This document shows, piece after piece, positions 3,932 to 18,243 of a stretch of 26,936 nucleotides of DNA. The stretch comes from a virus (lineage: Duplodnaviria; Heunggongvirae; Uroviricota; Caudoviricetes), in the IMG/VR virus record IMGVR_UViG_2660238215_000003; one strand, written 5' to 3'. Every line of letters starts with the position of its first letter. Positions within the stretch are counted from its first letter, which is position 1. A program made the position numbers and the translations under genes. The notes beneath the pieces were generated by a model that was not told where the DNA came from, ran no database searches, and saw only the letters and a program-made list of their open reading frames with translations.

Positions 3932-4339
3932 ATGCAGACCGATCTGGAATACTTGAAGGGAATGTTAGGGGTTTTTATTAAGGCTGGCGGACCATTGATA
4001 TCAGCTAATGACCTTAAAAAAGCTGGATACGAAATAAGCAGCGATAAAGGACTCTTTCATTACTACCAATTGATTGAGAGAGGTTATATCAGTAACCATT
4101 TTCTAGAAATAGGCGATCCTAAGAAATTAGGACTTACTATTGGGCTTAATGAAATCCGTGAATGGCCAGCCAATGTAAGACTCACGTCATCAGGCCAAGA
4201 GTTTGCAGAAACCCTTCAACAAAAGGATGTTTTTGAGAAGCTAAAAACAATTAGCGATCAACCATTATCGGTATTGAAAGATGTTGGTGTAGAGCTTCTA
4301 AAATCCTACGCAAAAAAGAAATTTGGTCTTTCAGATTAA
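3932..4339 (+). CDS. Hypothetical moron protein, DUF2513-like winged-helix protein (function unknown)
   Basis: Strong SD GGAGG 7 nt upstream; AT-rich gene in the lysis-terminase interval; motifs LFHYYQLIERGYISN and a C-terminal helical region resemble, from memory, the DUF2513 family. Not searched. Confidence 0.6.
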   Translation: MQTDLEYLKGMLGVFIKAGGPLISANDLKKAGYEISSDKGLFHYYQLIERGYISNHFLEIGDPKKLGLTIGLNEIREWPANVRLTSSGQEFAETLQQKDVFEKLKTISDQPLSVLKDVGVELLKSYAKKKFGLSD

Positions 4340-15180: not shown

Positions 15181-15621
15181 ATGTCTACCTATTCTTTTAT
15201 GGATGTCACTGCGACGCTGACCGGGCCGACCGGTTCGATTGACCTCGGGTACGGTTCTGCAAGTTCTGAAGAGGGGATTGTGGTTGCGATGGGCGGCCCT
15301 AAAAACACCATGACCATCGGTGCTGATGGCGAAGTGATGCACAGTCTCCATGCAGATAAAAGCGGGACGATTACCGTTAACCTTCTGAAGACATCACCGA
15401 CAAATAAAAAATTGTCGCTGGCGTATAACGCACAGAGCCAGTCTTCTGCCACATGGGGGAATAACGTTATTGTGATCCGAAACAAGGTCAGCGGCGACAT
15501 CATCACGGCACGTAGTGTTGCGTTCCAGAAACAACCGGATAATGCCAACGCTAAAACCGGTAATACGATGCCGTGGGTGTTTGACTGCGGCAAGATTGAC
15601 CAGGTTCTCGGGGAGTTTTAA
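15181..15621 (+). CDS. Tail tube-like protein (DUF3277-like)
   Basis: 146 aa, AAGGGGA SD, directly after the sheath-like gene. Confidence 0.6.
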   Translation: MSTYSFMDVTATLTGPTGSIDLGYGSASSEEGIVVAMGGPKNTMTIGADGEVMHSLHADKSGTITVNLLKTSPTNKKLSLAYNAQSQSSATWGNNVIVIRNKVSGDIITARSVAFQKQPDNANAKTGNTMPWVFDCGKIDQVLGEF

Positions 15622-15624
15622 TAC

Positions 15625-16077
15625 ATGGAATTCGAAATCAAAGGCGTGAAATATCGCGCGGCAAAACTCAGCGTTTTTGATCAGCTGAAAGTGACCCGCA
15701 AACTTCTGCCTGTGCTGGCAGGAATGATGTCAGATTTCGGGAGCATTCGCTCCCGTTTGCCTGCTGACGGCAAAATCGACACCGTGAAATTCGAGCAGTT
15801 AAAACCGGTGTTTGAAGCCATGCTCCCGCGTATCGCTGAGGAACTGTCTTCCCTGACTGAAGAAGATACCAACGCGATTATTCATCCTTGCCTGGCCGTA
15901 GTGTCACGTAAGCACATGGACGGATGGACACCGGTATTCAACAGCGGTCAGCTGATGTTCGATGATATCGACCTGCTAACCATGCTGCAGCTGGTGGCGC
16001 GGGTGGTCGCCGATTCACTGGGAAATTTTTTGCCTACACCCCTTACCAGCACGACACAGAGCCTGCAACAGGGCTGA
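15625..16077 (+). CDS. Tail assembly chaperone (gpG-like), zero-frame product
   Basis: 150 aa immediately upstream of the tape measure gene; contains a slippery T TTT TTG heptamer near its 3' end. Confidence 0.6.
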   Translation: MEFEIKGVKYRAAKLSVFDQLKVTRKLLPVLAGMMSDFGSIRSRLPADGKIDTVKFEQLKPVFEAMLPRIAEELSSLTEEDTNAIIHPCLAVVSRKHMDGWTPVFNSGQLMFDDIDLLTMLQLVARVVADSLGNFLPTPLTSTTQSLQQG

Positions 16078-16265
16078 CGTTTAACAGCCTGCCGGACGGG
16101 CTGTCCTACCTTCTCAATCCGGTTGACGCCGGGTTAATTCCTTATACAGCACTTAAAGATGGCTCTGTCGATTTGTACGACATTGCTCTCTTGAATGACC
16201 ATCTGGCGGTAAAAGCGGATAACCAGCGGCGCATTGAGAAATGGAGAGAGGATAATGAACGCTGA
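15625..16265 (+). CDS. Tail assembly chaperone -1 frameshift product (gpGT-like fusion), predicted
   Basis: Slippery heptamer T_TTT_TTG at 16026-16032 in the chaperone frame; the -1 frame is open from 15966 to a TGA at 16263-16265, extending across the chaperone stop into the start of the tape measure gene. Confidence 0.5.
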
Positions 16266-18243
16266 AACTATTAAAGATTTCCTCGTCTCGCTTGGCTTCA
16301 GTGTGGATGATGCAGGAGCGAAAAAGTTCGGTTCTGTCCTCTCCGGTACAACTGCAAATGTCATCAAAATGGGGCTGGCTGTTGAAGGATCTGCGCTGTC
16401 CGTGGTGGCCTTCACGGCTAAGATCGCCTCCGGTCTGGATAATCTCTACTGGGCGTCACAGCGCACCGGCGCGACGGTTCAGGGGATTCAGTCTATTGGC
16501 TATGCGGTTTCGCAGGTTGGCGGCAGCGTGGACGCTGCGCGCGGGTCACTGGAGAGCCTTGCCCGTTTTATCCGTAATAACCCCGGGGCTGAGGGATTTC
16601 TGAATCGTCTGGGGGTACAGACACGGGATGCCAGCGGTAACATGCGTGACATGGCCGCTATTTTTACAGGTGTAGGACAGAAGCTCAGCGGCATGCCGTA
16701 TTACCGGGCTAACCAGTATGCGCAGATGCTGGGCATTGACGAAAATACCCTTATGGCGATGCGCCGGGGTGTGGGTGGTTTCTCCGGGCAGTACAGCGCA
16801 ATGGCGAAAGCTATCGGCTTCAATGCTGACGAGGCGGCCAGAAGCTCCAACAAATTTATGACCTCCCTGCGTGAGTTTGGCGCGATGGCAGGCATGGCCC
16901 GTGACAAAATCGGCTCTAATCTTGCGGGTGGGCTTGCGGGTTCGCTGGACACTCTGCGCCGCCATATCCTGGACAACTTCCCGCGTATCGAGCAGACCCT
17001 GACGAAAGCCATAAAAGGCATTCTGGCGCTCGGGGATATTATCGGGCGGCTGTTCTTCAGACTGATTGAAGGAACATCAGGCCTCATCACCTGGTGGCAA
17101 TCGCTGGATAAGCAAACGCGGGAGCTCATCTCGCTGTTTGGCGCGCTGACGATTGCGCTGCGCATTCTGAACAGTACGTTCTGGATGTCGCCGATTGGCC
17201 TCATTACCGCGCTGGCGGCGGGGATTGCCCTTCTGTGGGAGGACTATCAGACCTGGAAGGAAGGCGGCGACAGCCTGATTGACTGGGGCAAGTGGAAGCC
17301 GGAGGTCGATGCCGCGCTGAAGATGGTTCGTGACCTGAAAGGGTCTGTTAATGAACTGGCGAAAGCGCTGGCGAAACTGCTCAATATTGACCCCAAATCA
17401 TGGTCCCTGAAGTGGGATTTCAGCAACTTCATCGACCAGATGGGCGAATTCAGCAAAATGCTGAACATGATCGCCGACCTGCTCAACGCTATCAAAGATG
17501 GCCGCTGGGCTGATGCAGTCAGCATCAGCAAACAGATACTTAATCAGGGCAGCGAAAATCCGTCAGCGATGCCGATGGTTACAGACAGCGCTAACAGTAC
17601 TGCCGACTGGATTAAAGAGCACTGGGGATTCGATCCTCGCAGCGTGGGCCGGACGGTACGCGGCTGGTTTGGTGATGATGAGCCGGAACAATATGCACAG
17701 GCTACGAAACGAGGAGAACGGAATAACAATCCGGGAAACCTTAATTTTGCTGGTCAGGCAGGGGCTTCTCTTGAACGCCCGGGCGGGCGATTTGCCAGAT
17801 TTGAAACTGCTTTTGATGGATTACGGGCTCTTGCTCGTCAGTTAATGTTGTACGCCGGACGTGGAATAAACAGCGTGGAGAAAATTATCTCTACCTGGGC
17901 ACCTGCGTCTGATAATAACAACACAACTGCGTATATCAGGGCTGTATCGCAACGACTGGGAGTGGATCCCCGGGCTACCCTGAATATGAGCGATCCGCAA
18001 ACCATGTCAGCATTGATGAGCAGTATTATCCAGCATGAAAATGGAAGAAATATCTATTCTCGAGAGCTGATTAATAAGGCTGCCGTGGCAGGAATTAGTG
18101 GCAAAGTGACAGAGGTTAACCAGCAAAATACTTACCACATTTACGGTGGCGGAGATCCGCACGCTGTCGGTAATGAGGTTGCACGTCGGCAACAGTCTGC
18201 AAATGCTCAGGTCATGCGAAGTAATCAGGTGAGGGTGGGTTAG
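16255..18243 (+). CDS. Tail tape measure protein
   Basis: Long ORF after the chaperone pair with hydrophobic central segments; ATG at 16255 with GGAGAGAGG SD (the ORF track starts at an upstream TTG, 16234). Confidence 0.8.
   Translation: MNAETIKDFLVSLGFSVDDAGAKKFGSVLSGTTANVIKMGLAVEGSALSVVAFTAKIASGLDNLYWASQRTGATVQGIQSIGYAVSQVGGSVDAARGSLESLARFIRNNPGAEGFLNRLGVQTRDASGNMRDMAAIFTGVGQKLSGMPYYRANQYAQMLGIDENTLMAMRRGVGGFSGQYSAMAKAIGFNADEAARSSNKFMTSLREFGAMAGMARDKIGSNLAGGLAGSLDTLRRHILDNFPRIEQTLTKAIKGILALGDIIGRLFFRLIEGTSGLITWWQSLDKQTRELISLFGALTIALRILNSTFWMSPIGLITALAAGIALLWEDYQTWKEGGDSLIDWGKWKPEVDAALKMVRDLKGSVNELAKALAKLLNIDPKSWSLKWDFSNFIDQMGEFSKMLNMIADLLNAIKDGRWADAVSISKQILNQGSENPSAMPMVTDSANSTADWIKEHWGFDPRSVGRTVRGWFGDDEPEQYAQATKRGERNNNPGNLNFAGQAGASLERPGGRFARFETAFDGLRALARQLMLYAGRGINSVEKIISTWAPASDNNNTTAYIRAVSQRLGVDPRATLNMSDPQTMSALMSSIIQHENGRNIYSRELINKAAVAGISGKVTEVNQQNTYHIYGGGDPHAVGNEVARRQQSANAQVMRSNQVRVG

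Follow-up and report, generated by a model that had tools for sequence, protein, structure and literature searches.

A tail assembly chaperone gene of an Escherichia coli prophage is probably extended by a DUF6889 domain through programmed −1 ribosomal frameshifting

The locus described here occupies positions 15,625 to 16,265 of a 26,936-nucleotide (nt) stretch of viral DNA (IMG/VR virus record IMGVR_UViG_2660238215_000003, Caudoviricetes), to which we refer as the window. It contains the gene of a tail assembly chaperone and, in the −1 frame relative to this gene, an overlapping open reading frame (ORF) that encodes a DUF6889 domain, with a slippery run at the point where the two frames would be joined (Table 1). 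The zero-frame product of the chaperone gene aligns with Pfam PF21822 (Phage_TAC_15) over residues 6–136 (109.9 bits, E 1.6e-31; gathering threshold 22 bits) and with the tail assembly chaperones of phrog_1688 (3.5e-62). The genes follow each other in the order sheath, tube, chaperone, and tape measure, which puts the chaperone gene after the tube gene and before the tape measure gene, the place typical of G/GT-type chaperones.

The zero-frame codons at the site are CTG (16018), GGA, AAT, TTT, TTG (16030–16032), and CCT, and T_TTT_TTG at 16026–16032 is therefore an in-frame heptamer of the X_XXY_YYZ type. A preliminary description of this DNA had placed the slip at T_TTT_TTG. This heptamer is indeed of the slippery type and in the zero frame, as a direct reading of the codons confirms, but it is not the sole one: two further in-frame heptamers that had not been noted, G_GGA_AAT and A_AAT_TTT, overlap it within the run GGGAAATTTTTTG. 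The −1 frame (frame 3) has stop codons only at 15963 and 16263 and, as described before, is open from 15966 to 16265. A −1 slip at any of the three heptamers would add 77 residues (135/136 + 77) and yield a product of 213 amino acids (aa); the preliminary description had given about 78 residues for the extension. The extension terminates at TGA 16263–16265, 11 nt within the tape measure ORF that begins with ATG 16255, in agreement with the earlier placement of its end inside the start of that gene. Taken together, the −1 ORF overlaps the 3′ end of the chaperone gene, has no ATG or GTG of its own, and carries an in-frame heptamer in the overlap, which is the arrangement of G/GT-type genes.

Perfect in-frame heptamers also occur elsewhere in the window, and 26 others were counted in the 33 ORFs on its plus strand that are 100 aa or longer (8203 codons). 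After these, the −1 frame stays open for 0–26 codons, and just one of them passes the stop codon of its gene, by 35 nt. At the chaperone site, the −1 frame is open for 77–79 codons, extends 188 nt beyond the stop codon, and ends at the start of the next gene. The combination of the slippery run with a long open −1 frame exceeds chance expectation.

The extension matches Pfam PF21829 (DUF6889) with 70.6 bits (E 8.7e-20; gathering threshold 23.9 bits), with residues 173–211 of the fused protein covering positions 2–40 of the 40 positions in the profile, and it matches phrog_4364 with 1.3e-22. We counted variable columns by codon position (1/2/3) in 50 distinct close sequences. The extension (16078–16262) shows 6/3/36 variable columns in the −1 frame, and for the chaperone body the zero-frame counts are 37/19/94. 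The slippery run is invariant at all 13 of its bases. From there to the chaperone stop, a stretch of 42 nt is variable at all codon positions, indicating that the linker is loosely constrained in both frames. Judged by these substitution patterns, the extension is genuine coding sequence under purifying selection.

An AlphaFold2 (AF2) model of the fused protein is confident, with a predicted local distance difference test score (pLDDT) of 88.2 and a predicted template modeling score of 0.72. It consists of a helical N-terminal domain, a linker of lower confidence (residues 141–160), and a helical C-terminal domain, with pLDDT values of 93–96 over residues 161–210. The structural neighbors of the model in BFVD are mostly myovirus chaperones, among them the Moogle frameshift product, and there may be a weak resemblance to the HK97 chaperone (PDB code 2ob9). 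When the PDB was searched with a sequence profile, only designed helical proteins and no sequence-related solved structure were returned, and NCBIfam holds no model for a fusion of the chaperone with DUF6889.

The same two parts are found fused in nature. A search of 1.8 billion cluster representatives identified seven distinct proteins of 191–210 aa that share 28–33% identity with the fused reference protein P0001 and are colinear with it across the junction; the four of the seven that were checked on DNA are uninterrupted single ORFs. A profile built from these seven fusions matches the window in the zero frame with nodes 4–124 and in the −1 frame with nodes 120–200. Because the match moves from one frame to the other, the switch can be placed at 16020–16035 with no slip site assumed beforehand. 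At the homologous Phe position, the single-ORF proteins use TTC and show no heptamer, which serves as a negative control. Across the sequences compared, the T-run is present where a shift would be needed and absent where the two parts are already fused.

Five distant relatives at 60–66% G+C (L089–L093) encode the chaperone and DUF6889 in one uninterrupted gene of 208–210 aa with TTC at the junction Phe. Directly upstream of this long gene, three of them (L091–L093) carry a separate, short PF21822 gene. We considered that the short gene might be a recent duplicate of the long one and rejected this possibility, as BLAST of its product against the long protein gave E values of only 0.3–1 (L091 and L093). 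The surroundings of the fusion gene vary as well. Baseplate-type genes, not a tape measure gene, lie directly downstream of it in L090 and L091–L093, and in L089 it is followed by genes on the opposite strand and has a 674-aa gene upstream.

We next consider the relation of the two frames across relatives, for which a hidden Markov model pipeline was run over the window and 283 fetched loci, 280 of which were scored. In 273 of the 280 loci, the DUF6889 part is found in the −1 frame relative to the chaperone. Of the seven exceptions, five are natural fusions that had been fetched on purpose; the other two are L008, a T7 variant, and L077, which has a single-G deletion. L008 (Logan SRR23924998, positions 2478–2490), a relative with 93% identity, reads GGGAAATTTTTTTG and has T7 instead of T6, which joins the chaperone and DUF6889 in frame and gives the 213-aa P0001. 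Being found on a single contig, the T7 may stem from a homopolymer error, from mutation, or from slippage. In L077, an IMG/VR relative, one G is lost from a GGG run of the extension at about 2973 (equivalent to 16097–16099 of the window), which moves the DUF6889 part to the +1 frame; the cause is either an error in sequencing or the decay of the prophage.

An annotated set of 16 further loci covers phages and prophages of Klebsiella, Salmonella, Yersinia, Hafnia, Elizabethkingia, Ralstonia, Burkholderia, Providencia, Acinetobacter, Bordetella, and other E. coli strains. All 16 have the DUF6889 ORF in the −1 frame, extending 167–197 nt past the chaperone stop, with its own stop overlapping the start of the tape measure gene. 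In five of them, the −1 frame has a stop codon 0–6 nt upstream of the run, so that no earlier shift is possible there. The run GGGAAATTTTTTG is unchanged in the relatives from Klebsiella, Salmonella, Yersinia, Hafnia, and other E. coli.

Clustering at ∼80% protein identity gave 49 clusters. The homologous codon pair is NNT TTT in 48 of these and ACT TTC in the remaining one, a Bordetella phage. A perfect heptamer covers the homologous Phe codon in 44 clusters, as X_XXT_TTT only (18 clusters), T_TTT_TTN only (16 clusters), or both (10 clusters). In the rest of the same genes, Phe is encoded by TTT in 47% of cases, and third positions are T in 21%. Clusters of the Burkholderia type (62–68% G+C), which are otherwise almost devoid of TTT, keep CCT TTT at this position.

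Two stretches next to the run are conserved at the nucleotide level. The 17 nt directly after the Phe TTT, ATTCAAGGGCTGCTTAC, are nearly identical in loci of the Acinetobacter type (41% G+C) and the Burkholderia type (65% G+C), among others in L099, L103, L100, and L130. Such nucleotide conservation is unusual in a dual-coding stretch and could reflect the constraint of two frames or an RNA element. On the 5′ side of the run, the block ATGCTGCAGCTGGTGGCGCGGGTGGTCGCCGA (15981–16033) is nearly identical in nucleotides among enteric relatives that show 27–50% synonymous identity elsewhere, and Megablast matches to diverged prophages (H46–H48) stop exactly at 16032/16033. This suggests that the slip site falls on a mosaic junction or that the upstream region is constrained at the RNA level. 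One large clade dominated the profile of minor alleles across the gene, and the profile was uninformative.

From this comparison, the gene pair is very probably a G/GT-type (TAC-N/TAC-NC) tail assembly chaperone made by programmed −1 ribosomal frameshifting, as the preliminary description had proposed by comparison with the conserved chaperone frameshift upstream of tape measure genes in tailed phages. Most ribosomes would read the zero frame to its end and produce the 150-aa chaperone. Some would slip in the run, enter the −1 frame at 16032, and continue to the TGA at 16263–16265, so that the 213-aa product would comprise chaperone residues 1–135/136, the linker, and the DUF6889 domain. The slipping tRNA would be tRNA-Phe on T_TTT. 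With A_AAT_TTT it would occupy the A site and the junction would read ...GNFFAYTP..., with T_TTT_TTG it would occupy the P site and the junction would read ...GNFLAYTP..., and one or both of these may be used. A downstream RNA structure would not be involved, as reported for P2 E/E+E′, and a Shine-Dalgarno-like sequence upstream may help. By analogy with λ gpG/gpGT, both forms would coat the tape measure protein via their common N-terminal part, the rare long form would recruit the tube protein via its extra C-terminal domain, and neither form would be part of the virion.

Several observations weigh against frameshifting of this kind. The literature searched contained no protein-level support (mass spectrometry, reporter assay, or genetics) for this chaperone family and no mention of DUF6889, PF21829, or PF21822. 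In 4 of the 49 clusters, the bare T_TTT tetramer is present with no perfect heptamer. In E. coli, the U_UUG tetramer shifts at just 1.8–3.6 times background, and U_UUU_UUG is missing from the list of the best heptamers (PMC4066793), so that T_TTT_TTG may not be the main site. The downstream stimulatory structure that the preliminary description had suggested looking for did not emerge. Single-sequence folds of 16033–16112 and 16020–16160 revealed none (z −0.78 and −0.28), and the RNAalifold consensus of nine enteric relatives amounted to −0.51 kcal/mol, with two invariant pairs and no covariation. Frameshifting may thus be of low efficiency. A downstream structure is optional for this family of sites, being reported as absent in P2 and rare in phages (PMC3091744).

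A candidate stimulator lies on the upstream side. The Shine-Dalgarno-like sequence GGGTGGTC, 11–17 nt upstream of the heptamers, forms a duplex of −6.1 kcal/mol with the 3′ end of 16S rRNA, which is among the top 13% of the windows across the chaperone gene, and the block is nucleotide-identical in enteric relatives. Over 48 clusters, which are not independent of each other, complementarity to the anti-Shine-Dalgarno sequence 6–24 nt upstream averages −4.29 versus −3.03 kcal/mol (Wilcoxon p = 0.004). We treat this weak enrichment as a lead only, because the clusters are not independent and because the GTG codons of a Val-Val pair yield the motif. The sequence GGGTGGTC may stimulate the frameshift from upstream.

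Within programmed frameshifting, the site itself could be narrower than the run. A shift solely at T_TTT_TTG, of the P2 type, with Leu-tRNA occupying the A site and a junction of ...GNFL|AYTP..., would agree with the invariance of this heptamer in all loci of the Enterobacterales type, and the same heptamer is the proven site of P2 E/E+E′ (PMC3091744). The 16 clusters with a T_TTT_TTN heptamer alone indicate that this register can suffice. Nevertheless, we regard T_TTT_TTG as sole site as doubtful, because 18 clusters, including the Acinetobacter and Burkholderia types, lack it and offer only X_XXT_TTT, one codon earlier. The weakness of the U_UUG tetramer also speaks against it, as H_HH.U_UU.Y heptamers, including A_AAU_UUU, belong to the efficient classes in E. 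coli (PMC4066793). The two upstream heptamers predict the junction ...GNFF|AYTP... instead. Three heptamers overlap here, inseparable by sequence alone, and the family-wide constant is only T_TTT on the Phe codon, which in the window corresponds to A_AAT_TTT at 16023–16029. We infer that the common denominator of the registers is the re-pairing of tRNA-Phe from UUU to UUU.

Current annotation treats the −1 ORF as a small gene of its own, with no frameshift. The Prokaryotic Genome Annotation Pipeline and other pipelines call it as a separate coding sequence in hundreds of enterobacterial genomes, in versions of 43–78 aa with non-canonical starts; in RefSeq and at NCBI, it is named “DUF6889 family protein” (54 aa, from CTG 16101) or “NTP pyrophosphohydrolase” (16101–16265; WP_071819661.1 and relatives). 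An independent gene is nonetheless highly improbable. The −1 frame of the extension contains no ATG or GTG, the only candidate starts being CTG at 16074, 16089, and 16101 and TTG at 16173 and 16191, and no spaced Shine-Dalgarno sequence was found for any of these. The spread in the lengths of the database versions indicates that the choice of start has been arbitrary. Moreover, an invariant proline (Pro-157) and the conserved motifs FxYxP and LPDG lie upstream of the annotated start at CTG 16101, and the profile of the natural fusions matches the −1 frame from the slippery run onward. The fixed −1 relation in nearly all scored loci and the single-ORF fusions of distant relatives argue in the same direction. 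Termination-reinitiation at the CTGA overlap (CTG 16074/TGA 16075) was also considered and rejected, as relatives have TTA or other non-start codons at this position. The name “NTP pyrophosphohydrolase” found no support in any search made and is wrong.

Slippage of RNA polymerase on the T6 could in principle add one U to some transcripts, which would then encode the fusion with no shift by the ribosome. The window has the T6, and the T7 of L008 demonstrates that one additional T gives exactly the fusion. Productive transcriptional slippage needs runs of about 8–9, and T4 is far too short. Since 22 of the 49 clusters have only T4 (the 18 with X_XXT_TTT only and the 4 with the tetramer only), polymerase slippage is very unlikely as the mechanism of the family. 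What the family conserves is the register in which T_TTT stands to the zero frame, and this register is relevant to the ribosome and not to the polymerase. Finally, it is extremely improbable that the heptamer and the open −1 frame are coincidental and that only the 150-aa chaperone is made: although in-frame heptamers are common in the window and the folds near the site revealed no stimulatory structure, the open stretch after any other heptamer of the window does not exceed 26 codons, the extension is a conserved domain under purifying selection, and the T-run is kept against codon usage in phages of 65% G+C and lost exactly where the parts fuse in frame.

Frameshifting in the chaperone gene that precedes the tape measure gene is a textbook feature of phages. 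The mechanism itself is not new, and for this family, two GenBank records already join the ORFs. Klebsiella phage Mulock (MN098327) and Burkholderia phage Magia (MT701587) have the same protein families and gene order as the window, and their records list a “tape measure chaperone frameshift product,” in both cases a prediction at the level of annotation. Mulock carries GGGAAATTTTTTG in identical form, and the Mulock paper is silent on a frameshift. Magia has C_CCT_TTT and not T_TTT_TTG.

A close likeness in anatomy and site is P2 E/E+E′ of the FETUD operon, in which a contractile-tailed E. coli phage also has a small gene between its tube and tape measure genes. In P2, a −1 shift takes place at TTTTTTG, with no reported downstream structure, and the extension lacks its own start (PMC3091744). 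The P2 products have 91 and 142 aa compared with 150 and 213 aa here. In contrast to P2, the window has two more overlapping heptamers at the site, and in relatives lacking TTTTTTG the signal lies one codon upstream.

The functional model for the pair is λ gpG/gpGT, from which its role is drawn by analogy. In λ, the tape measure protein is the binding partner of gpG and of the G part of gpGT, and the tube protein is that of the T domain; gpG and gpGT are made at a ratio of ∼30:1, and neither is found in virions (PMC5009743). A paper of 2025 described TAC-N/TAC-NC pairs in Pakpunavirus and Andersonviridae with an invariant GTTTTT, using the same comparative argument (PMC12846349). Similar to these, the window family has a poly-T motif at the 3′ end of TAC-N and a downstream ORF that is routinely misannotated as a separate gene, and the window tube protein matches a Pfam family named after Pakpunavirus KPP10. 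Unlike the invariant GTTTTT, the base before T_TTT varies in the window family (A, C, G, or T).

Pfam lists DUF6889 as a domain of unknown function. On the basis of the comparison above, we assign it as the putative C-terminal domain of the long chaperone isoform. The practical gain lies in annotation, where the two ORFs can be joined by the rule of a T_TTT on the Phe codon of the conserved L-G-x-F motif. A further gain is that the slippery site comes into clear view by comparison, for which the single-ORF relatives lacking the T-run provide a clean internal control. Tentatively, the requirement for two chaperone forms, one short and one long, may be satisfied in interchangeable ways within the PF21822 and PF21829 family, that is by a −1 shift with tRNA-Phe in the A site (X_XXT_TTT) or the P site (T_TTT_TTN), by stacked registers as in the window, or by a single long gene. 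The single long gene stands in some elements beside the separate, highly diverged short PF21822 gene. If this is true, the family would represent a natural experiment on why recoding is retained and how the ratio between the two forms is set, and DUF6889 would gain a function as the tube-recruiting “T” domain.

Table 1. Positions of the chaperone locus, its recoding elements, and neighboring genes in the window
Feature	Position	Strand	Remarks
Tail assembly chaperone, short zero-frame product, 150 aa (“G”/TAC-N equivalent)	15625..16077	+	PF21822, phrog_1688
Slippery run GGGAAATTTTTTG with three overlapping in-frame heptamers	16020..16032	+	G_GGA_AAT 16020–26, A_AAT_TTT 16023–29, T_TTT_TTG 16026–32
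T_TTT (Phe codon 16027–16029 and preceding T)	16026..16029	+	Sole site element kept family-wide
−1 frame extension, 77 codons and TGA (predicted “T”/TAC-NC-specific part)	16032..16265	+	Linker 16032–∼16139, DUF6889 domain ∼16140–16256
Shine-Dalgarno-like GGGTGGTC, 11–17 nt upstream of heptamers	16001..16008	+	Candidate upstream stimulator
Tail sheath gene, 381 aa	14025..15170	+	Pfam DUF3383 5.3e-101; phrog_205 tail sheath 1e-135
Tail tube gene, 146 aa, directly 5′ of chaperone	15181..15621	+	Pfam PF11681 KPP10_Orf10 8.8e-61
Tape measure protein gene	16255..18243	+	ATG 16255; phrog_2276 tail length tape measure protein 3.5e-281

The window as a whole is an E. coli prophage that combines lambdoid early and lysis genes with a contractile tail module of the type found in Salmonella phage SEN34 (Brunovirus). 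The 641-nt chaperone locus is 100% identical to that of E. coli OkiPb01713 and is found in 333 of 5426 complete E. coli genomes. The tube family PF11681 carries the name Phage_Tube_PhiTE in a separate precomputed label.

The window also contains two phage tRNA genes, tRNA-Asn(gtt) and tRNA-Thr(tgt), at 2246–2320 and 2326–2401. The Asn codon AAT occupies the A or P site in two of the three overlapping heptamers, and tRNA-Asn(gtt) is among the tRNAs that the prophage carries. Another heptamer of the window, the in-frame A_AAA_AAG at 4312–4318, is the most efficient one in E. coli. It lies 21 nt ahead of the stop codon of the ORF 3932–4339, which encodes a hypothetical protein of 135 aa and is located downstream of the lysis genes. 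A −1 slip at this heptamer would extend the product by 18 codons, as far as 35 nt beyond the stop codon, and its presence may well be a chance occurrence.
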